In this document: piece by piece, positions 542 to 63,941 of the stretch
Layout of the letters: every line of letters starts with the position of its first letter
How positions within the stretch are numbered: position 1 is the first letter of the stretch
Source: a bacterium
GTDB lineage: Bacteria > Patescibacteriota > Minisyncoccia > Phycocordibacterales > Zambryskibacteraceae
Direction of reading: 5' to 3'
Length of the DNA stretch: 64,000 bases
Assembly (NCBI GenBank): GCA_030649135.1
Contig: JAUSGI010000005.1
Location: 1-64,000, forward strand
Notes under the pieces: model-generated
What the model was told of the DNA's origin: nothing
The model's input: only the letters and a program-made list of their open reading frames with translations
Databases searched by the model: none
Program-made: the position numbers and the translations under genes

Positions 542-2071
542 TTACCTTGCAAACTCGATAGAACGAGCCTCCCTGATGACGTTGACCTTAATCTCGCCCG
601 GGTATCTAAGCTCGCTTTCAATGCGGAGGGCGATATCACGGGCCATTTTCTTGGCCTCAAGGTCAGAAACCTTCTCCGGAGTGACGAAAACCCTGATTTC
701 CCTGCCGGCGGCAAGCGCGTAAGCCTTGTCCACGCCTTCATAAGAAAGGGCGATGTCTTCAAGATCCTTTAGGCGCTTGAGATAATTCTCCAAATTATCC
801 CTGCGCGCCCCCGGCCGGCTGCCGGAGATGGCGTCAGCCGTCTGGACTATGACCGATTCGACGGTCTCATAAGGATATTCACCGTGATGCGCTTGCATCG
901 CCTTGATAATATCTTCGGAGACATTGAATTTCTGGAGAATCTTCCTGCCTATTTCCACGTGAGTGCCGGAAACCTCGTGGTCTAAAGCCTTGCCGATATC
1001 ATGGAGCAGCGCTCCGGCCCTGGCTACAGCCACGTTTGCCCCCAGCTCCTCCGCAATCATGCCGGACAAGTGACTCATTTCTACCGAATGCTCTAGAACG
1101 TTCTGGCTATAACTGGTACGGAAGTGGAGTCGTCCAAGAATGGAAAGGAGTTTCGGGTCGAGATTGTATATTTCGCACTCCATGGCCGCTTCTTCGCCTT
1201 TTTGCTTGATGAGGGAATTCACTTCCGATTCGGCCTTGGCCACGAACTCTTCGATTCTGGCCGGCTGGATGCGCCCATCGGAGATGAGATTGTCGAGCGA
1301 GAGCTTGGCTATGGCCCTACGCACCGGGTCAAAGGAGGAGAGAGTGATGGAGTTCGGAGTATCGTCGATGATAACCTCTACTCCGGTGGCCCGCTCGAAA
1401 GCTTTGATATTCCGGCCTTCCTTGCCGATTATCTTGCCCTTAATCTCATCGGACGGAAGGGCTACCGCGGTAGACATGATTTCGCCGGAGATTGAAGCGG
1501 CGAGCCTCTGGATGGCCGCGGAGATTATTTCTTTGGCACGCTCATCGAAACGCTCCTGCCCATGCGCCTCAAGTTTCTGCATGCGTATCAGGAAATCTTC
1601 TTCGAAATCCTTTTCAATAACTTTCAACAGCTCCTCCTTGGCCTCAAGAGGGGAGAGACCGGAGACCTTGGCCAATTCGCCTTGTCTTTTTTCCACCAGC
1701 TTTTCTATTTTCTCCTTGAGGGCCGTGGTTTCCTGCGCTCTTTCCTTTACATACTCGACTTCCTGGGATAAATCCGCCTGGCGCTTGTCCAAAAATTCTT
1801 CTTTTTTTATAAGACGGTCTTCAATATTTTTGAAACGGTTCTCCTTCTCCTTGAGTTCGGCTTGCGCTTTCTCTGCAAGCTCCTGCGCTTTCTCTTCGGC
1901 TTCCAAAATAATCCTTTGGGCCTCTTCTTTGGAATGGAGTTCAAGCTGCTTGATGTCGAGTTCCATGGACCCCTTTCTGCCCAAAGAAATCAGCAGGCGC
2001 AGTAAATAACCGAAGCCGATACCGGCTGATGCGGCAAGTAAAGCTAGAAGTAGCGCTAGTTTTAGAGACAT
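542..2071 (-). CDS. rny: ribonuclease Y
   Basis: 509 aa with an N-terminal TM helix and coiled coil, a KH domain (IIGKEGRNIKAFERATGVEVIIDD), and an HD domain (LLHDIGKA...HHGE). Confidence 0.9.
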   Translation of the reverse strand: MSLKLALLLALLAASAGIGFGYLLRLLISLGRKGSMELDIKQLELHSKEEAQRIILEAEEKAQELAEKAQAELKEKENRFKNIEDRLIKKEEFLDKRQADLSQEVEYVKERAQETTALKEKIEKLVEKRQGELAKVSGLSPLEAKEELLKVIEKDFEEDFLIRMQKLEAHGQERFDERAKEIISAAIQRLAASISGEIMSTAVALPSDEIKGKIIGKEGRNIKAFERATGVEVIIDDTPNSITLSSFDPVRRAIAKLSLDNLISDGRIQPARIEEFVAKAESEVNSLIKQKGEEAAMECEIYNLDPKLLSILGRLHFRTSYSQNVLEHSVEMSHLSGMIAEELGANVAVARAGALLHDIGKALDHEVSGTHVEIGRKILQKFNVSEDIIKAMQAHHGEYPYETVESVIVQTADAISGSRPGARRDNLENYLKRLKDLEDIALSYEGVDKAYALAAGREIRVFVTPEKVSDLEAKKMARDIALRIESELRYPGEIKVNVIREARSIEFAR

Positions 2072-2166
2072 TTGCGGAGGCTCAGTCAGTCGGAGCGGTC
2101 AGGCGGCGGGCACCAAGAAACGTTTCTGTTTATGTTTTAAGAGTGAACAACCGAAGTGTACTACTT

Positions 2167-2778
2167 CTATAGAATCTTGTCTATAATTCCGTATTTTTTG
2201 GCCTCCTCGGCAGTCATGAAGAAATCGCGGTCAATGTCCTTCTGAACTTGAGAGACGGATTGGCCGGTATTTTTAGCCATTATTTTTACCAGGTTTTCCC
2301 GCAGTTTTAAAATTTGCTTGGCCCTAATTTCGATATCGGTAGCCTGGCCCTGGGCACCGCCAAGCGGTTGATGAATCATGACCTCGGCATTCGGGAGCGC
2401 GAAACGCTTGCCCTTGGCACCGGCCGATAAGAGCCACGCGCCACCGCTGGCCGCCATGCCCACGCAGACGGTGGAAACATCCGGCTTAATGTGATTCATG
2501 GTATCAATCATGGCCAATGTCGCCGTAGCGGAACCGCCGGGAGAATTGATGTAAAGGGAAATATCTTTTTTCGGGTCCTCAAATTGGAGGAATAGGAGCT
2601 GGGCGATAACGATATTAGCCACGTCATCGTCAATCTCTCCGCCCAGAAAAATAATGCGCTCGCGGAGAAGGCGGGAGTAAATGTCGTAAGCTCGTTCGCC
2701 GAACTGGCTTTTCTCAATGACTGTTGGCACTAGATAACTCATGCGGCTTAGATTATCCCAAAGCCCGAGCGAAATCAA
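2167..2778 (-). CDS. clpP: ATP-dependent Clp protease proteolytic subunit
   Basis: 203 aa; the [11 protein letters not shown] region carries the catalytic Ser and MIHQPLGG the His-region typical of ClpP. The start may be the internal Met at [10 protein letters not shown] (approx 2739). Confidence 0.92.
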
Positions 2779-2831
2779 GTAAACAAAAACACGCCCTAGG
2801 GCGTGTTTTTGTTTCTCATTCTAACGAGAAA

Positions 2832-3089
2832 CTAGGATGCGTTAAGCTCGGCGTCGAGATTTTCTATTTCAGTGGAATTCAGATCAGCCTCTATGGCGGC
2901 TGCTGTGTCTGAATCGCTCTGAGAGTTGATGGCGTTGATTTCATCATTTATCGCCTGATTGTCTTCACGCTGGCCCATGAAGTAGAGGGCGCCGAAGACA
3001 ATGACCGCGAGAATGATGATGCCGCCGATTATCGGTCCGGCCGAACTGCCTCTCTCTTGAACCGCGCTAATGTTATTTGATTCATCCAT
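2832..3089 (-). CDS. hypothetical small membrane-anchored protein
   Basis: 85 aa with a single hydrophobic helix (GPIIGGIIILAVIVFGALYF) and an acidic tail; no recognisable family. Confidence 0.4.
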   Translation of the reverse strand: MDESNNISAVQERGSSAGPIIGGIIILAVIVFGALYFMGQREDNQAINDEINAINSQSDSDTAAAIEADLNSTEIENLDAELNAS

Positions 3090-3112
3090 GTTAGTTCCTA
3101 ATTAAGAATAAA

Positions 3113-3640
3113 TTAATCTTCCGGGGTTGAAGTCGCGCTTCTTTCTCCTCCGAGGGCTCGTATTGCCTTCGTGAGGCTCCTGTGAGCTTCGCGGATGTGG
3201 CCCTTGGCCTCGCTAGCGATATCGCGGACTCTTTCGAAGTTCTCTTTGGCTTTGTCTCCGGAAAGGTCCACGGAGGCGAAGAGGGCTATGCTTGCTTTGG
3301 TTAAGGAGAGGTGGTTTCTGGCCTCCACCACGTAAGCGGTAGAAGTGGCGGTAACGCCACCATCGGCCTTAACCTTCTCAATCCTGGATTCGAGGCGGAC
3401 AATTATCCTCTCGAGACGCTCAACTGTCGCCGTAAGTACTCTTGACGTATTGGCGGCCTTTCTCTTAGCCAGGCCTCTCTGCATTTCTGCGCGAGCGTCA
3501 GTGCTTGAGGCTTTTCTGGTCTGGGCTTCAACTTTACGAGTTTCAGTCTGGGTTCTAACATTGGGCTCTTTGGCCAGAGCGGGGGAAGCGAGCGAAACAA
3601 TGGAAAACATCAGTATCAGTGGAATGATTTTGCGATTCAT
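3113..3640 (-). CDS. hypothetical secreted coiled-coil protein
   Basis: 175 aa; N-terminal signal peptide (MNRKIIPLILMFSIVSLASPALA) followed by Ala/Arg/Glu-rich helical sequence. Confidence 0.5.
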   Translation of the reverse strand: MNRKIIPLILMFSIVSLASPALAKEPNVRTQTETRKVEAQTRKASSTDARAEMQRGLAKRKAANTSRVLTATVERLERIIVRLESRIEKVKADGGVTATSTAYVVEARNHLSLTKASIALFASVDLSGDKAKENFERVRDIASEAKGHIREAHRSLTKAIRALGGERSATSTPED

Positions 3641-3713
3641 TAGTGTTGGGTTAACTCTTAAACAGCCGTTACCGTAACCTCGGCATCAAGCCGAGAGGGT
3701 TAATTATAGCTAA

Positions 3714-4247
3714 TTAACCCTGCTTCTGCGAATACTCTTCGTTGTATAGTTTTAGCCCTTCTTCAAAGGCGTTTTCCGCCTCAATTCTACCCTTAAAACC
3801 CTTAACCTCGACGACTTTGTCCTGGAGCTTCTTGTAGGTGCTGTAGAAATGCTCGATTTCCTTGAGAGTGTGGGGGTTCACGTCATTTAAGTCTTTGAGG
3901 GTGGCGAAACGCGGATCATCGACTGGCACGGCGATAATCTTGTCGTCTCCCTCGCCGGAATCAATCATGTTCATGATAGCCACCGGCCGGACACGCACCA
4001 GAATGCCGGGCATTAAGGGGTAAGTAGTGAGAATAATCACATCCAAAGGGTCCTTGTCATGCCAGAGAGAGCGCGGCACGAAGCCGTAGTCGAAAGGAAA
4101 GTCCTGCGCGGTATGAGCCACCCGGTCCAGGGCGATGAGGCCGGTCTTCTTGTCTATCTCGTATTTATTTTTCGAACCCTTGTTGATTTCAACGATGACG
4201 TTGATGGATTCCTTGGAACCCGGTTCTATGTCGTGCCAGAGATTCAT
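3714..4247 (-). CDS. ppa: inorganic pyrophosphatase
   Basis: 177 aa; family I PPase signature (EINKGSKNKYEID...DPLDVIIL...DDKII). Confidence 0.9.
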   Translation of the reverse strand: MNLWHDIEPGSKESINVIVEINKGSKNKYEIDKKTGLIALDRVAHTAQDFPFDYGFVPRSLWHDKDPLDVIILTTYPLMPGILVRVRPVAIMNMIDSGEGDDKIIAVPVDDPRFATLKDLNDVNPHTLKEIEHFYSTYKKLQDKVVEVKGFKGRIEAENAFEEGLKLYNEEYSQKQG

Positions 4248-4268
4248 AAGTTTTTATTATACAGCAAA

Positions 4269-5408
<1,140 letters not shown>

Positions 5409-5482
5409 GATGTGAATTGTTACGAATTAAACCGTATTAACGAGAGAGGTTCGCCTCGCGGCGAACCTCTCCGAATAACCTA

Positions 5483-5511
5483 TTACTCTCCTAGTATAAC
5501 AAATCCCTAAA
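5483..5511 (-). promoter_or_regulatory. candidate sigma70-type promoter for nusA (TTGCAA, 17 nt spacer, TATACT), followed by a leader hairpin at 5442-5472
   Basis: Read on the minus strand: TTGCAAaaaatttagggatttgtTATACT. The 5' UTR contains a perfect 12-bp stem (GAGAGGTTCGCC gcga GGCGAACCTCTC) about 30 nt upstream of the nusA ATG. Confidence 0.5.
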
Positions 5512-5564
5512 TTTTTTGCAAGCCTTCCTGTCAGAAATCTCCGGTACTGAAGAACTCTGACAGG

Positions 5565-5589
5565 AAGCCGACGTTGCATCGGCTTTTTG
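5565..5589 (+). terminator. plus-strand intrinsic-terminator-like hairpin (AAGCCGA cgttgca TCGGCTT TTTTGA)
   Basis: 7-bp GC-containing stem followed by a T5 run on the plus strand; no plus-strand gene ends here (see findings). Confidence 0.35.
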
Positions 5590-5692
5590 AGGATGGTGAT
5601 TCTCGGGAGTTGGAAGGTCTCCCACCCCTTCTGTTGCCAGGCCGTCCTCACGGCCCCGGTGACCCACGTGATAATCAGCGTATTGCTGCCGG

Positions 5693-6013
5693 CTAGGATG
5701 CCAGCGCAATCTCACTAATCTCAAGCCCCAGAAGATCCGAGAGGTAGGTGTCAACCTCCTCCGGCATCCTCTCCGGCTTGACCACGAGGATCAGGCTGGG
5801 CACCATACCCCTTTCCGGGATAGGAGCCTGCGCCATCACCCACTCGACCTTGGAATCCGACATGCGGTTTTCCACCGCAGCCAGACGCCCAAAGCAAGTG
5901 GTGCAGGCGCACCCCAACCACATCACCTCGAACGCGACGAGATTGCTCTCGACGCGACCGAAGCGAGGGTTGGACCAGCCGTCCACCCGCAGGCGAACGG
6001 TTCGGTTGGCCAT
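5693..6013 (-). CDS. hypothetical small protein with WLGCACTTC (CxCxxC) motif
   Basis: 106 aa from the ATG preceded by GGAGGTGaaatc. GC-rich codon usage, distinct from flanking genes. Possibly a thioredoxin-like or Fe-S-like small protein; not assignable. Confidence 0.45.
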   Translation of the reverse strand: MANRTVRLRVDGWSNPRFGRVESNLVAFEVMWLGCACTTCFGRLAAVENRMSDSKVEWVMAQAPIPERGMVPSLILVVKPERMPEEVDTYLSDLLGLEISEIALAS

Positions 6014-6262
6014 GATTTCACCTCCTTTCATGGCGAGTTATTCACCCGGATACCAACTGATAGCGCCTTCTCGCTAATCAGTCAGAAATCCAAGGCTACA
6101 TTAACGGCTAGGTCGCCCCAATCTTAAAAGAACAGCTGTTTCGCCCTTTTGGGCACATCAGTCGGGATACGCATCCCGAGACAGCAGGGACTAGTTGATA
6201 GTCCCTATGGCGGTTTCATCCGCCCCTCCTTATCCCCAACCTCCCCTGTGCGGGTGAGGATG

Positions 6263-6574
6263 TTACGGGGTCGAATCACCTTTCCCGGCATACTTACTCC
6301 GGTACTCAGCGATGAGCGCGTCCGCCTCCTCAGTCGAGGAGACGACCTGCCGGAGGCTAACCCTCCGGTTGAGCGTGCCGAACCGGCACGCCACGCGCGG
6401 ATTGGCAGCTTCGCCAATCCGAAGGACGAGCAGGTACCCGTCCTTCGTCTTGCGCAAGGAATGAGACATCTCCTCGTCGCAAAACTGGCGCACGACTACG
6501 CCGTCCGCGCTGGGAGCGGAATTGCACCCAGCGAAGAGCACGACCAGACAAAGAACAGCGGCAAACTTGATCAT
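6263..6574 (-). CDS. hypothetical lipoprotein
   Basis: 103 aa; signal peptide with lipobox (VVLFAGC); AGGAGaataagac ATG start; GC-rich. Confidence 0.5.
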   Translation of the reverse strand: MIKFAAVLCLVVLFAGCNSAPSADGVVVRQFCDEEMSHSLRKTKDGYLLVLRIGEAANPRVACRFGTLNRRVSLRQVVSSTEEADALIAEYRSKYAGKGDSTP

Positions 6575-6610
6575 GTCTTATTCTCCTGCGGCCTCGCCGC
6601 TTTCGAACAT

Positions 6611-6660
6611 TAAAGAACTTGAGCGAACCATTTCGCTCTTCTGAAAATCCAATTCCATTA
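6611..6660 (-). promoter_or_regulatory. copy 1 of a duplicated ~50-nt hairpin element located immediately 5' of the lipoprotein gene
   Basis: AAAGAACTTGAGCGAAccATTTCGCTCTTCTGAAaa... shares about 85 percent identity with 6985-7040. Forms a GAGCGAA/TTCGCTC stem extended by AGAA/TTCT. Confidence 0.5.
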
Positions 6661-6676
6661 GATTTTCGGAACAGCG

Positions 6677-6706
6677 GGCGAAGCATTGCACTTCGCCGGG
6701 TTTTTT
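6677..6706 (+). terminator. plus-strand intrinsic-terminator-like hairpin (GGCGAAG cattgca CTTCGCC GGG TTTTTT)
   Basis: Stem-loop followed by T6 on the plus strand, inside the GC-rich block. Confidence 0.35.
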
Positions 6707-6792
6707 AACGTGGTTCACTCCACGGAGCTGTGGTCTCGCCTCGGGATTATGATTTGCCCGAGATCCCCACTCATGTTTGCTCAGGCACCTTC

Positions 6793-6960
6793 GACTTACT
6801 TTCCAAAGCGATACAGCAGCTTTAGGAAGTAAGGAAAGGCCGCGAAGGACTGCGCACCTTTGAAGGCGAGGTTGCATCGCTTGCATACCATCACAAGCTG
6901 CCCGTCATCCGGGTCCTCGACCCCCTCAAGGAGTTTGTCCTTACACTCCGGACAGTCCGT
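6793..6960 (-). CDS. hypothetical 55-aa zinc-ribbon protein (CPEC...CKRC)
   Basis: MTDCPECKDKLLEGVEDPDDGQLVMVCKRCNLAF...; two CxxC pairs; preceded by GGAGGTGGTAAGAG. Below the 60-aa ORF-track cutoff; translated manually. Confidence 0.4.
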
Positions 6961-6984
6961 CATCTCTTACCACCTCCTTCTTCC

Positions 6985-7040
6985 AAAGAACTTGAGCGAA
7001 TTATTTCGCTCTTCTGAAGAACCAAATTTCAATTTTTAGT
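6985..7040 (-). promoter_or_regulatory. copy 2 of the duplicated ~50-nt hairpin element located immediately 5' of the zinc-ribbon gene
   Basis: CAAAGAACTTGAGCGAAttATTTCGCTCTTCTGAAgaaccAAATTTCAATT; same architecture as 6611-6660. Confidence 0.5.
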
Positions 7041-7498
7041 TCCTCGGAAGAGGGGGCTAGAGAAGTTCTCTCGCCCCGGCGTAGTCTGGAGTCCCGGTTT
7101 CCCTATGCCGGGTTATCTCCAGTTAAGGACCCACGCAAGGTCCCGCGCCACAGTCGAGGCTTCCCTCGAACGTCTGTGACGACTCGCCGCAACAACCATT
7201 GCGGCAGCAGGGGCTGAGATCATCAGCCAACCGCCTGCACGGCCGGTGGACTCTGGCGCGTTTTGGGGTACGCACCGCTCCACCATGGGAAGAACAAAAC
7301 CCTGTTTCATCCTTTCGGAATCATCAGCCCGGATACACATCCGGATACAGGAACCAGGGTTTAGCATTCCTGGTAGCGGCTCTGCTTCCGCGCGGCTCAC
7401 CACTCTAAGTAGGTGACACTTCTCTGTTTGTTATCGCGGGACAGAGAGCCGCGTATGCATTTTCTGTTCCCAGGACTGCGATAACACCCCGGCTAACC

Positions 7499-7669
7499 CT
7501 AAGTTAGCAGTACCCGGAGGGAGAAGATTACTTCCTTCTCCTCCAACGATCGGTCCGTCCTCCAGAAGGGAAAGAAATCGCTCGAAGCGACTCCCTCCTC
7601 TCGGATTTCGGACGACCGTCGGGGCTGTAGCCAGCCCGGGCGAGAATCATAGTGGCTTGCACCACCAGA
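7499..7669 (-). CDS. possible small basic ORF (56 aa, GTG start after GGAGGTGagtgagt)
   Basis: VEKGKKNLVVQATMILARAGYSPDGRPKSERRESLRA...; first ORF downstream of the minus-strand promoter at 7733-7761; weak evidence. Confidence 0.2.
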   Translation of the reverse strand, partial: SGGASHYDSRPGWLQPRRSSEIREEGVASSDFFPFWRTDRSLEEKEVIFSLRVLLT

Positions 7670-7732
7670 TTCTTCTTACCTTTTTCCACTCACTCACCTC
7701 CTTTCAGGGAACCTTGTCAGCGTCCGATTACA

Positions 7733-7761
7733 ATCTTACTCCATGTGATATTTATTGTCAA
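7733..7761 (-). promoter_or_regulatory. candidate sigma70 promoter reading into the GC-rich block (TTGACA, 17 nt spacer, TAAGAT)
   Basis: Minus-strand read TTGACAataaatatcacatggagTAAGAT within the AT-rich 7700-7950 hub. Confidence 0.45.
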
Positions 7762-7906
7762 CTCATTTTGACACTTTACTACAACTGGTCGTAAAAATAT
7801 GGCTAAATAAGACCATAGTTTGAAATATGAGTTTAATTTGGTCTGACTAAACTAGTATTTAAAGGGTTGATATTTTTGACCAATAATGGTGTTTAGTCAT
7901 TTACGT

Positions 7907-7935
7907 TTGACAAATAAAATTAGGGGGTATATACT
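7907..7935 (+). promoter_or_regulatory. candidate sigma70 promoter (TTGACA, 17 nt spacer, TATACT) with no protein gene downstream
   Basis: TTGACAaataaaattagggggtaTATACT. The next ~220 nt has no ORF over 22 codons and ends in the strong hairpin at 8131-8155. Confidence 0.5.
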
Positions 7936-8130
7936 GGTGACAGAAACTCCTCGAAAGGAGAGTGCATGAACGACTAGGGGATGGGGAAGTCCGGGGCGTA
8001 GCGCCCCGGACATGACCCAGAAATGCGGTTAACAGAAAAGGAGATTGGGATGGCCGACTGATGTCGTACCTAGGGTAGCTTCAAAAACCAGGAGGGGGTT
8101 ATGCTGTTAGCAATGACCCCACCCACAAAT

Positions 8131-8167
8131 GCCGTGGCGGCTTCACCGCCACGGCATCTTCATTTAT
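8131..8167. terminator. GC hairpin (GCCGTGGCGG cttca CCGCCACGGC) followed by a T-rich tract; terminator for the TrmB-like gene and/or the plus-strand transcript
   Basis: 10-bp perfect stem; flanked by T-rich sequence on the plus strand and lying just 3' of the minus-strand gene ending at 8160. Confidence 0.5.
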
Positions 8168-8900
8168 GATCAAAGATGTATTTGATAAGGCTTTTAAGAG
8201 TTTCTGCAAACTCCTGACTTTTTACAGATATTCCTGAAAGTCTTTTCCCGAGTATGGCTATTTTCACACGATCGCCATAAATCGTTATGTCACTTGTAAT
8301 CGGATACTTTTCATGATCTATTTTAATTCTTTCTCCAGTGCTATCAGACGGTTTATCGATAATTTTCGAGGTGTAAATTGATTTCGACCTGATTCCTCTG
8401 GAAATCCTTTCCTCTCGCATATTCGTCGTTTCTTTTTCAGTAAATAGATCTTTTACTAAATCTAGTGGATATACCATATAGACTGGTTCGTCATCGAGTT
8501 TTTTTACAAAAGTATCATCGTTGGAACTCAAGACCCCTTCCTTACCATCGAAAAACTGGACTATAGGTTTTCCTACTCGCTCTCCTTGGAGACCTCTCAA
8601 TTGGGGGATGATGATATCTAAGCTTTTTTTGTTTTCCTCTAGAAGGTGAATTTGTCTCTCAACAAAGAAACCGAGTTTCTCCGGTGGTTCGGCTAGGTAA
8701 TAAGTCTTTTTACCTATATTGGTCTCACTTACAAGACCCTTTTTAGCCAAAGAGTCGAGAATGACATAAGTTGTTGGTCTTTTAACTTTCGCTTTTTGTG
8801 AGATCTCTGATATTTGAGCCTTGTCGAAAGAGAGGAGGGCGACATAGACTGCCGCTTCCTTATCGCTCAATCCTATATCCCTGAGATATTTCTCGAACAT
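8160..8900 (-). CDS. TrmB-family HTH transcriptional regulator
   Basis: 246 aa; the N-terminal wHTH (DKEAAVYVALLSFDKAQISEISQKAKVKRPTTYVILDSLAKKGLV) matches the TrmB sugar-regulator family layout. Confidence 0.75.
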   Translation of the reverse strand: MFEKYLRDIGLSDKEAAVYVALLSFDKAQISEISQKAKVKRPTTYVILDSLAKKGLVSETNIGKKTYYLAEPPEKLGFFVERQIHLLEENKKSLDIIIPQLRGLQGERVGKPIVQFFDGKEGVLSSNDDTFVKKLDDEPVYMVYPLDLVKDLFTEKETTNMREERISRGIRSKSIYTSKIIDKPSDSTGERIKIDHEKYPITSDITIYGDRVKIAILGKRLSGISVKSQEFAETLKSLIKYIFDHK

Positions 8901-8933: not shown

Positions 8934-9872
8934 TTACTTCCTCCTTGAATGAAACCTTTTGTGGGTATCGCGAAGCGCCTTGTCGGTGACGTGGGTATAT
9001 ATTTGAGTTGTCGAAATATTGGCGTGGCCGAGAAGCATTTGGACGCTACGAAGGTCGGCGCCATTGCTTAAAAGATCAGTAGCAAAGCTGTGACGAATAA
9101 CGTGAGGTGTCACTTTTTTTGAAATGCCGGCTTTTATCGCATAATGCTTCACAATTCTTTCTATCGAGCGGCGAGTGAGAGGAAGGGAGTCTTTGGTTTT
9201 AGTGTTTTTCCCTACCTGAACAAAGAGGGCATCATTCATATCCTTGCGAGCTTTGAGATATTTGGATACGGCGTTTCTCGCTTCATCAGAAACAAAGACT
9301 ACCCGCACCTTACTGCCTTTACCCCTGATAGAAAACTCCCCGACAGAAAGATCAGTATCATTATTTAACGAGCAGAGTTCGGATACACGAAGCCCTGTGG
9401 AGAAAAGCATTTCAAGGATAGCTTTGTCGCGAAGTTCTTTAATTCCATCGCCTTTGGGCATCTCAAGTAGGCGAGTGAGTTCGGCAGGGGAGATGAGATC
9501 AAGAGAGCGTTCTCCAACTTTAGCCAGTTCAATGCGTTCTGCTGGCAGACTTGTAATTTCTTGCCGAGCCAGATACTTGAGAAAAGAGCGTAAGGCAATC
9601 AGATAATAATTCTGCGTCTTCTTCGACATGGTTTCACCGGTTTGTCGGTTATTGCCGGTCGACTGGCGGTTAAGCCACATCCTAAATTCTCTCACCACTT
9701 CGTCACTAATATCCTTCGGATTTTTTACTTCGGTATGCTTAAGAAAAACGGAAAGGTAGTGGTCATAGTTCTCAATAGTCTTGAGTGCCCGGCCCTTTTC
9801 GATCTCGGTATATTCCAGAAATCCTCTCTTTAATCGCTCTAGTTCACTAACATTCCCCATATTGTGCGACAT
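8934..9872 (-). CDS. xerD: tyrosine site-specific recombinase (XerC/XerD / phage-integrase family)
   Basis: 312 aa; C-terminal catalytic box HVIRHSFATDLLSNGADLRSVQMLLGHANISTTQIYTHV (R..HxxR..Y). Confidence 0.88.
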   Translation of the reverse strand: MSHNMGNVSELERLKRGFLEYTEIEKGRALKTIENYDHYLSVFLKHTEVKNPKDISDEVVREFRMWLNRQSTGNNRQTGETMSKKTQNYYLIALRSFLKYLARQEITSLPAERIELAKVGERSLDLISPAELTRLLEMPKGDGIKELRDKAILEMLFSTGLRVSELCSLNNDTDLSVGEFSIRGKGSKVRVVFVSDEARNAVSKYLKARKDMNDALFVQVGKNTKTKDSLPLTRRSIERIVKHYAIKAGISKKVTPHVIRHSFATDLLSNGADLRSVQMLLGHANISTTQIYTHVTDKALRDTHKRFHSRRK

Positions 9873-51390: not shown

Positions 51391-51463
51391 TGCGCCCAGC
51401 AGGGATCGAACCTGCGACCTTGTCCTTAAAAGGGACCTGCTCTACCAACTGAGCTATGGGCGC
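51391..51463 (-). tRNA. tRNA-Lys (anticodon TTT)
   Basis: Manual fold: acceptor GCGCCCA/TGGGCGC; D-arm GCTC-AGTTGGTA-GAGC; anticodon loop CTTTTAA; T-arm GCAGG-TTCGATC-CCTGC. CCA not fully encoded. Confidence 0.8.
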
Positions 51464-55306: not shown

Positions 55307-55381
55307 GCTCCCATCGTTCAATGGATAGGACATAACTTTGCGGAAGTTAAAATGTAGGTTCGATTCCTACTGGGAGCACCA
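55307..55381 (+). tRNA. tRNA-Arg (anticodon read as GCG)
   Basis: Manual fold: acceptor GCTCCCA/TGGGAGC; D-arm GTTC-AATGGATA-GGAC; anticodon stem TAACT/AGTTA with loop TTGCGGA; T-arm GTAGG-TTCGATT-CCTAC; CCA encoded. Confidence 0.7.
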
Positions 55382-58078: not shown

Positions 58079-58167
58079 GGAGGGGTGGCAGAGAGGTCTA
58101 TCGCACCGCACTTGAAATGCGGCGTGGGGTAAATCCCACCGTGAGTTCGAATCTCACCCCCTCCGCC
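58079..58167 (+). tRNA. tRNA-Ser (anticodon TGA)
   Basis: Manual fold: acceptor GGAGGGG/CCCCTCC; anticodon stem CCGCA/TGCGG with loop CTTGAAA; long variable arm (CGTGGGGTAAATCCCACC); T-arm GTGAG-TTCGAAT-CTCAC. Confidence 0.8.
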
Positions 58168-63866: not shown

Positions 63867-63941
63867 TGGTGCCCCCGGCAGGAATCGAACCTGCATCAAA
63901 GCCTTAGAAGAGCTCTACTTTATCCATTAAGCTACGGGGAC
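63867..63941 (-). tRNA. tRNA-Arg (anticodon TCT)
   Basis: Manual fold: acceptor GTCCCCG/CGGGGGC; D-arm GCTT-AATGGATA-AAGT; anticodon stem GAGCT/GGCTT with loop CTTCTAA; T-arm GCAGG-TTCGATT-CCTGC; CCA encoded. Confidence 0.75.

Follow-up and report, generated by a model that had tools for sequence, protein, structure and literature searches.

Clusters of hammerhead ribozymes lying in the same orientation and flanking single small genes have been described in bacteria, and processing of the transcripts into single-gene mRNAs was proposed for them (Perreault et al. 2011, PMC3088659). In that work, the ribozyme of phage PaP3 was listed among the active hammerheads with core variations, and the natural occurrence of the U10.1-U11.1 mismatch was discussed. 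The biological roles of bacterial self-cleaving ribozymes were called "largely elusive" in a review of 2019. The present analysis concerns two RNA modules encoded on the minus strand of the first 64,000 nt of contig JAUSGI010000005.1 (assembly GCA_030649135.1), from a bacterium of the Zambryskibacteraceae (Patescibacteriota). This whole stretch is referred to as the window. Judged by sequence and predicted fold, the modules, named HH-A (copy A, 6135-6185) and HH-B (copy B, 7300-7352), are homologous type III hammerhead self-cleaving ribozymes. As ribozymes they are ordinary, being further examples of an already described RNA class and of a subfamily that was described and tested in 2011. With a probability of roughly 0.8, they would act as self-cleaving processing sites within one polycistronic transcript, which would be divided by intercistronic self-cleavage.

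The locus has a counterpart in the clustered prophage hammerheads of Clostridium scindens, Azorhizobium caulinodans and Agrobacterium tumefaciens, where several co-oriented ribozymes likewise flank small genes of a polycistron. It differs from them in that prophage genes are not evident in the window, the neighbours being nusA, a TrmB-family regulator and an XerC/D-like recombinase. Moreover, the ribozymes of the window alternate with non-ribozyme hairpin leaders, termed D2, and in its close relatives hairpins stand in for the ribozymes.

The two hammerhead modules and their family

The region 5500-8200 was inspected on both strands. The repeat search returned a direct repeat of 49 nt with 78% identity (6136-6184 versus 7302-7350, 1166 nt apart), and pairwise alignment of the minus strands gave a shared block surrounded by unrelated sequence. 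Two homologous segments in the same orientation had been pointed out here in an earlier note on this DNA, and all the strings quoted in it are present. Read on the minus strand, and with a slash at the predicted cut, HH-A is GCUGUC/UCGGGAU-GCGU-AUCCCGA-CUGAUGU-GCCC-AAAA-GGGC-GAAA-CAGC and HH-B is CCUGUA/UCCGGAU-GUGU-AUCCGGG-CUGAUGA-UUCC-GAAA-GGAU-GAAA-CAGG. In HH-A, U16.1 is position 6181 and C17 is 6180, and cleavage is predicted between 6180 and 6179 (GUC/U). The cut site is followed by stem-loop I (6179-6162), the core CUGAUGU (6161-6155), stem-loop II GCCC-AAAA-GGGC (6154-6143), GAAA (6142-6139) and the 3' strand of stem III (6138-6135). In HH-B, stem III is formed by 7352-7347 and 7304-7300, U16.1 is 7347, A17 is 7346 and the predicted cut lies between 7346 and 7345 (GUA/U). 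Between the two strands are found stem-loop I (7345-7328), the core CUGAUGA (7327-7321), stem-loop II UUCC-GAAA-GGAU with a U10.1/U11.1 mismatch (7320-7309) and GAAA (7308-7305).

The elements of the earlier description can be named accordingly. Its first hairpin, TCGGGAT-ACGC-ATCCCGA in copy A and (C)CCGGAT-ACAC-ATCCGG(A) in copy B, was correctly read and is stem-loop I, while CCTTTYGG is stem-loop II. The supposed linkers are the catalytic core, ATCAG and CTGTTTC being the reverse complements of CUGAU and GAAACAG, and AAGAACA is the reverse complement of a UGUUCUU located downstream.

Compensatory changes between the copies were found in each stem. In stem I the third pair changes from G-C to C-G and the first from U-A to U-G, in stem II a C-G pair becomes U-A, and at the fifth pair of stem III G-C gives way to C-G. 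The inner four pairs of stem III (CUGU/ACAG) are shared. When 55 nt were folded in isolation, a three-way junction was obtained for both copies, in which loops cap stems I and II and stem III is open; the fold of HH-A had a z value of -3.55. The NUH cleavage triplet (any base, U, then any base except G) is GUC in HH-A and GUA in HH-B. The A15.1-U16.1 pair is present in both and was invariant in 49 of 49 aligned family members. Both copies retain the conserved nucleotides of loop I (UGYGU) and loop II (NAAA). The core of HH-B is complete (CUGAUGA and GAAA), and that of HH-A is intact apart from U at position 9. Stem II of HH-A is closed by G10.1-C11.1, for which HH-B has U/U, as do 25 of the 49 aligned relatives.

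The hammerhead core (CUGAUGA...GAAA) and the Rfam and model matches are found on the minus strand only, which upholds the earlier reading on the gene strand. The same result speaks against the other suggestion of that note, namely antisense or small RNAs of the plus strand. Nothing favours such RNAs except that the hairpins form on the complementary strand too. No promoter-like site of the plus strand lies nearby, the credible genes and ribosome-binding sites of 5400-7700 are all on the minus strand, and plus-strand RNAs retain a negligible probability.

At the gathering thresholds of Rfam, the whole 64-kb window yielded 4 tRNAs and no hammerhead. These unrelated tRNA genes lie in the last 13 kb, at 51391-51463 (minus), 55307-55378 (plus), 58079-58165 (plus) and 63870-63941 (minus). 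The hammerhead match came from a permissive scan of 5400-8200 with Rfam release 15, a check that the earlier note had proposed. HH-A matched the full model of RF00008 (Hammerhead_3, clan CL00010; model positions 1-54) at 6187-6133, with 42.7 bits and an E value of 2.6e-7. The modules have in common with this family the three-way junction, the open stem III, the CUGANGA/GAAA core and the NUH triplet. With a covariance model of the subfamily (R1), 73.7 bits were obtained for HH-B and 68.7 bits for HH-A, scores that arise partly by construction because both copies are in the seed alignment, and the next best site in the 64 kb reached 10 bits. By these measures, the resemblance of the copies to hammerheads is far above chance. 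No further copies were detected in the window by regular expression, by a generic hammerhead finder or by the covariance model with filters off, and a search of a plasmid collection gave no match.

Relatives were collected by scanning public collections with two DNA patterns, the first consisting of part of stem I plus CUGAUG and the second of the core plus a U/U-type stem II. The first pattern was found in 31 viral contigs and the second in 56. Among genomes, the first pattern gave 59 contigs (loci L086-L144), mostly metagenome-assembled genomes (MAGs) of Patescibacteria, or candidate phyla radiation (CPR), including Saccharibacteria, Kaiserbacteria, Paceibacterota and others. When any base was permitted at positions 7 and 9, the generic finder recognized 175 distinct hammerheads in the loci found by pattern. 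No paper linking hammerheads with Patescibacteria or CPR was found in the literature search.

An alignment of 49 diverse members, from which the R1 model was built, was used to evaluate pairing. It was observed that 96.2% of the cells pair (35-47% in slid controls), that 250 cells are changed on both sides (58 in shuffles), that both-side changes affect 15 of the 19 pairs and that the covariation score of 0.731 exceeds those of shuffles (0.195) and slid controls (0.09 or less), figures that are generous and overstate independence, since the set was partly chosen by required pairing. In the sequences obtained with the second pattern, stems I and III were unconstrained by the search, yet they still pair. 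As far as the alignment can tell, stems I-III covary across the subfamily. Further copies with conserved structure, whose absence would have counted against the earlier note, were found (more than 170 distinct relatives), and its proposal of a functional RNA structure with covarying stems and conserved linkers agrees with the compensatory changes in stems I-III and with the 49-member alignment.

Several members occur as multiple copies, and in multi-copy loci elsewhere the hammerheads were located 20-40 nt from the ends of open reading frames (ORFs) of the same strand, an arrangement also reported by Perreault et al. (2011). An array of 8 same-strand hammerheads with a spacing of 155-453 nt occupies 2 kb of a Candidatus Paceibacterota MAG contig (JAGVDT010000057.1, locus L140, 4827-6838). 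Its copies have a near-identical stem III (AUUCUGAUA...AUCAGAAU) and almost no ORFs in between, so that it resembles tandem small-RNA units more than a gene operon.

In a blastn search of 2.3 Gb of phage genomes, window positions 7304-7348 matched 65 Pseudomonas phages of the genus Bruynoghevirus (LUZ24/PaP3-like) with 91% identity over 45 nt (E 2e-7). The phage hammerhead is on the coding strand and in locus L001 it ends 1 nt ahead of a start codon. Its sequence is the reverse complement of the oligonucleotide JP_126_HH_PaP3-R, which appears among the supplementary data of Perreault et al. (2011; PMC3088659). HH-B and the PaP3 ribozyme share stem-loop II (UUCC-NAAA-GGAU with the U10.1/U11.1 mismatch), the loop of stem I (AUGUGU), the GUA triplet, the type III topology and an intergenic position on the coding strand. 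They differ in the sequence of stem III and in their host, HH-B being part of a bacterial chromosome with CPR relatives and not of a Pseudomonas phage. In addition, HH-B is followed by approximately 330 nt of structured RNA before the next ORF, in contrast to the single nucleotide of the phage copy. Self-cleavage of HH-B is thereby supported indirectly, through the near-identical active PaP3 ribozyme.

Operon context and probable intercistronic self-cleavage

On the minus strand, transcription would proceed from a predicted sigma-70-type promoter (TTGACA-17-TAAGAT, 7733-7761, a match to the consensus only) through a putative 53-aa ORF (7528-7689, GTG start, AAAGGAGG as Shine-Dalgarno sequence) to HH-B. 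Then come an apparently non-coding structured stretch (7083-7288), leader D2-2, a gene whose translation is a 55-aa zinc-ribbon-like protein (CxxC...CxxC, 6796-6963), leader D2-1, a gene for a 103-aa protein with a lipoprotein-like signal (…LFAGC, 6263-6574), two hairpins, HH-A after the stop codon of this gene and finally a 106-aa gene (5693-6013). The copies punctuate a gene-cassette-like unit. Processing sites within a repeated unit of this kind had been suggested before, and the hammerhead identity gives them a mechanism, self-cleavage.

Hammerhead identity, strand, cut-site geometry, family covariation and the near-identity of HH-B to an active ribozyme were obtained by direct analysis. 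From these we infer that HH-A and HH-B probably cleave in vivo and that they serve intercistronic processing. The transcript would start at the predicted promoter (7761-7733) and run through the four small ORFs and the structured non-coding stretch, and each ribozyme would fold into its three-helix junction during transcription. Internal transesterification would then cut the backbone after A7346 (GUA/U) in HH-B and after C6180 (GUC/U) in HH-A. The upstream product would keep the abutting hairpin described below near its end, with some 6 single-stranded nt behind it that terminate in a 2',3'-cyclic phosphate. The downstream product would carry a 5'-OH at its start, where the compact body of the ribozyme would precede GUUCUUU and the leader of the cistron that comes next. 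In this way the operon would be split into separate RNAs, possibly of different stability and translation.

Several observations weigh against this reading, besides the partial selection of the covariation set by pairing. Relative to RF00008, the 42.7 bits of HH-A stay below the gathering score of 48.5, HH-A carries U9, and neither HH-B nor the phage copies are reported. In the permissive scan of 5400-8200, HH-B was without any match at E ≤ 10. Since the experimentally active PaP3-type copy is likewise missed (no Rfam match at E ≤ 1 in phage loci L001 and L002), this silence is a limit of the model and not evidence against membership, and the U10.1/U11.1 subfamily escapes routine Rfam annotation. 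When HH-B was folded together with its flanks, the minimum-energy structure favoured an alternative AAACCCUG/CAGGGUUU helix over stem III, and z was only -1.2. None of the 15 syntenic loci of the 106-aa gene module has a hammerhead, and the ribozymes must on this account be dispensable for the module. Weak matches of the finder in these 15 loci were discarded as false, as they lie within coding regions.

The most specific objection concerns the core of HH-A, where position 9 is U (6155, plus-strand base A6155) in place of a near-invariant A. Among the 175 distinct hammerheads collected, A9 is present in 173 and HH-A is the sole case of U9; the single G9 belongs to a weak match that is probably false. 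A9 pairs with G12, and its phosphate helps to bind the catalytic metal. HH-A with A9U may therefore be slow, dependent on conditions or metal, or dead. The literature search on the effect of A9U yielded nothing specific. A precedent for a core change that shifts the metal preference is the natural A6C hammerhead variant, which prefers Mn2+. As a natural variant in an otherwise intact ribozyme, located beside the metal-binding site, A9U offers a probe comparable to A6C.

The private U9 also favours a different account, by which both copies are decaying relics of a phage or mobile element, recently acquired and without a role in the host operon, HH-A having been inactivated already by A9U. The abundance of the subfamily in phage contigs, the lack of a hammerhead in all syntenic relatives and the G+C content of the island, somewhat above that of the flanks, agree with this view. 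On the other hand, U9 aside, both copies are intact in their stems, cleavage triplet and conserved loop nucleotides, both keep the abutting 5' hairpin typical of the class, and they lie exactly at cistron boundaries, where the relatives carry other structured elements. Decay is considered improbable on balance. A public contig (L145) is identical to the window, including both hammerheads and U9, and an identical contig is present in run SRR13727527.

The arrangement of the copies could also suggest an excision unit. Both cuts together would free an RNA of 1166 nt (7345-6180) with 5'-OH and 2',3'-cyclic phosphate ends, on which the two small genes and the structured non-coding stretch are located, and a ligase of the RtcB type would close it into a stable circle. 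The ribozymes are co-oriented and 1166 nt apart, and with the inner stem III pairs shared a hammerhead would be re-formed at the site of ligation. Identical stem III sequences are found within many multi-copy loci, such as the L140 array with almost no ORFs between its 8 copies, and the product ends of hammerheads have the chemistry of RtcB substrates. Nevertheless, circular or spliced products of clustered bacterial hammerheads were sought and not found by Perreault et al. (2011; PMC3088659), and no ligase gene was noticed here, although no dedicated search was made. HH-A may be impaired by U9, and the relatives keep the same genes with no ribozyme. Excision and circularization are accordingly regarded as improbable, and intercistronic processing is retained as the preferred reading.

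The stretch between HH-B and leader D2-2 (7083-7288) was examined by folding and by alignment with the closest relative (L146). The fold of 7346-6964 had z = -6.2, and 7083-7288 is partly conserved in L146 (approximately 540-800), for example in CUGCCGC...GCGGCGAGNCGUCAC. Neither a conserved ORF nor an Rfam match was found for it, and the processing elements on either side may release it as a small non-coding RNA. A 96-aa ORF at 7113-7403 was rejected as a gene, having no ribosome-binding site, not being conserved in L146 and overlapping HH-B.

The surroundings are chromosomal. RNase Y, ClpP, inorganic pyrophosphatase and NusA are encoded at 542-5408, a TrmB-family regulator at 8160-8900 and the XerC/D-like recombinase at 8934-9872, and the island between nusA and the TrmB gene has a slightly higher G+C content than its flanks. 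The NusA and RNase Y sequences are identical to NCBI protein entries derived from a MAG. An integron cassette array was considered and dismissed, as the recombinase is XerD/XerC-like (254 and 236 bits) and reaches only 128 with the integron-integrase model (cut-off 265). An attC boundary was not supported either: GTTCTTT does not fit GTTRRRY, and the syntenic relatives have no adjacent recombinase. On the plus strand, divergent from the promoter of the island, a near-consensus promoter (TTGACA-17-TATACT) was noticed at 7907-7935. A strong terminator (12-bp stem, T-rich tail) follows about 200 nt downstream, at 8129-8157. The only ORF in this unit (7907-8160) encodes 22 aa with a good Shine-Dalgarno sequence (approximately 8102-8170), and the unit may serve as the gene of a micro-peptide or of a small RNA.

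Accessory hairpins and the GUUCUU motif

Sequence and folding revealed a hairpin directly abutting the 5' side of each ribozyme, next to the 5' strand of stem III. It is ACCAGG-AAUGCUAAAC-CCUGGU (7353-7374, minus strand) at HH-B and AGGGACUA-UCAAC-UAGUCCCU (6186-6206, minus strand) at HH-A. An alternative helix can form between the loop and 3' arm of the former (AAACCCUG) and CAGGGUUU, which lies at the 3' end of HH-B. This is the second hairpin of the earlier note, which is present in both copies as stated. The two sequences cannot be aligned as homologues, so that presence is kept and sequence is not. Perfect hairpins of 6 bp or more, ending no further than 3 nt from the hammerhead, were found at 60% of the genome copies and 68% of the viral copies, compared with 10-12% of random positions. 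Given this excess, the abutting 5' hairpin is a recurrent accessory feature of the class. Its probable effect is to stabilize the short stem III by stacking or to shield the 3' end created by cleavage, or the two together. Further upstream, a small hairpin GGCGG-AUGAAA-CCGCC (6209-6224, minus) follows the stop codon of the 103-aa gene and precedes HH-A, and a weaker counterpart, GCGG...CCGC (7376-7391, minus), is found in the sequence upstream of HH-B.

On the 3' side, both modules are followed by a U-rich motif of the minus strand. GUUCUUC (7289-7295) begins 4 nt past HH-B. GUUCUUU (6127-6133) stands 1 nt past HH-A and is the first conserved element of the 5' untranslated region (UTR) of the 106-aa gene. 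GUUCUU(U/C) occurs at five sites on the minus strand of the island, namely at 7295-7289 after HH-B, 6991-6985 after D2-2, 6618-6612 after D2-1, 6133-6127 after HH-A and 5556-5550, where it sits in the loop of the last hairpin. In genome loci, mostly of CPR MAGs, 18 of 69 hammerheads have GTTCTT within 25 nt of their 3' end, while 0.6 are expected. In the window and in many CPR loci, GUUCUU(U/C) starts the cistron leader after hammerheads, D2 elements or long hairpins, and the copy of the motif at 3766-3775 of L147 comes after a promoter. Pairing of GUUCUUU with the 3' strand of stem II (AAAGGAC) was discarded, since the motif is constant while stem II changes (L086, L104, L110). A genome-wide signal was discarded as well, the frequency of the motif elsewhere in the window being at chance level.

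The U-rich motif after each module had given rise to the proposal of compound terminators on the gene strand. Such intrinsic terminators, or attenuators, find an echo in the neighbouring D2 leaders, whose short hairpins with AAGUUCUUU scored as terminator-like. In the terminator scan, however, six terminator-like sites were detected in 5200-8200 and none of them at either hammerhead. No G+C hairpin runs directly into a U tract: the tails UGUUCUUUU and UUUUGUUCUUCC follow a junction-closing helix of just 5-6 bp, and the U-rich run is set apart from the helix and broken by G and C. Moreover, the conserved unpaired bases are those of the hammerhead core, for which termination offers no explanation, and in phage PaP3 the same RNA is located 1 nt ahead of a start codon and is self-cleaving. 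Termination at the two copies is thus held to be very improbable, and self-cleavage remains the favoured interpretation.

Hairpin leaders and relatives of the locus

Two leaders of a different kind precede the small genes between the ribozymes. D2-2 (6985-7082, minus), identified by repeat search, sequence and fold, immediately precedes the 55-aa gene. In order, its parts are a G+C hairpin, a longer one of some 20 bp (CUCUUCCGAGGAAC.../...GUUCUUCAGAAGAG), the short hairpin GAGCGAA-AUAA-UUCGCUC and AAGUUCUUU. D2-1 (6612-6703, minus), found by repeat search and sequence, has a D2-2-like architecture and lies directly 5' of the 103-aa gene. In its general form, the element comprises a G+C hairpin followed by a covarying one of approximately 20 bp (CGCUCUUCCGAG.../...CAGAAGAGCG), the short hairpin GAGCGAA-AUGG-UUCGCUC and AAGUUCUUU. 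The 3' arm of the long hairpin overlaps the 5' arm of the short one, and in six copies the long hairpin showed both-side changes in 11 of 19 pairs. Other copies were located in L146 (208-302, 436-538 and 798-884), L158 (approximately 4780-4960) and L270 (408-503 and 1038-1155). The last of these loci was the one true relative among about 120 matches of a D2 pattern in a metagenome scan, nearly all of which were due to chance.

Permissive scans of 5400-8200, L146 and L147 against Rfam did not assign D2 to any family. Assignment to the twister, twister-sister, pistol, hatchet, hairpin or hepatitis delta virus (HDV)-like ribozymes was rejected, the only Rfam matches being to miRNA-like hairpins at noise level. 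For D2, the roles of an RNase III site, of an attenuator and of a processing RNA of an undescribed type are all conceivable. On the plus strand, the sequence of the upstream D2-1 hairpin (6677-6706) has the form of a canonical intrinsic terminator (GGCGAAGCATTGCACTTCGCC, then GGGTTTTTTA), for which no upstream gene or promoter of that strand is evident.

Homologues of the 106-aa protein were found in Giovannonibacteria, Paceibacterota and Parcubacteria. The order is kept in these relatives: a TrmB gene, 1.5-2 kb with few called genes and a 105-aa gene, which always stands downstream of a TrmB-family gene. A conserved module of Parcubacteria-type genomes was observed, extending in the window from 8160-8900 to 5693-6013 and present in L147-L162 and L284. 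Its 1.5-2 kb are mostly non-coding, highly structured RNA with small ORFs, and the leader of the 105-aa gene is conserved over about 110 nt. The neighbourhood of the module varies, with xerC/D and nusA in the window and a location between ksgA and uvrD elsewhere.

In all relatives, conservation of the 5' UTR of the 105/106-aa gene sets in at GUUCUUU, and the element just upstream varies. Ahead of GUUCUUU were found HH-A in the window, elements of D2 type in L146 and L158, and long hairpins in L147, L153, L283 and L285. In L146, the closest relative (86% protein identity), the place of HH-B is likewise taken by D2-type elements, which precede the partly conserved structured RNA. Hairpin elements thus occupy both orthologous positions in relatives, which fits a shared role in punctuation.

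A functional parallel is provided by the RNase III hairpins between cistrons, for example in the early mRNAs of phage T7, which are cut in the polycistronic RNA and leave a terminal hairpin. The likeness is only functional and consists in the hairpins of 20-45 bp that relatives have exactly at the hammerhead positions of this genome. Hammerheads differ in being protein-free and in leaving 5'-OH and 2',3'-cyclic phosphate ends. The long hairpins of the relatives would, by this comparison, be candidate RNase III sites.

A wider proposal, which is put forward tentatively and is doubtful as it stands, is that the boundaries of small cistrons in this CPR lineage carry interchangeable punctuation modules, a hammerhead here and a D2 hairpin of about 20 bp or more in the closest relatives, followed by GUUCUUU. 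The hammerheads would then be protein-independent substitutes for hairpin sites that are maybe cut by RNase III, D2 would either be such a site or represent a self-processing or regulatory RNA of an undescribed type, and the A9U copy would be attenuated or condition-dependent.

With the class already described, what is of remaining interest in the pair is the private A9U, the exchange of hammerhead and hairpin at orthologous boundaries, the leader start at GUUCUUU and the apparent abundance in Patescibacteria. The subfamily stays under the Rfam threshold or unreported, yet it is present in about 59 genome contigs, mostly of Patescibacteria. A chromosomal operon of small genes, with hairpins at the same two positions in its relatives, ties the ribozyme to intercistronic punctuation. 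If true, the exchange of punctuation modules would amount to a natural swap experiment on the role of bacterial hammerheads.

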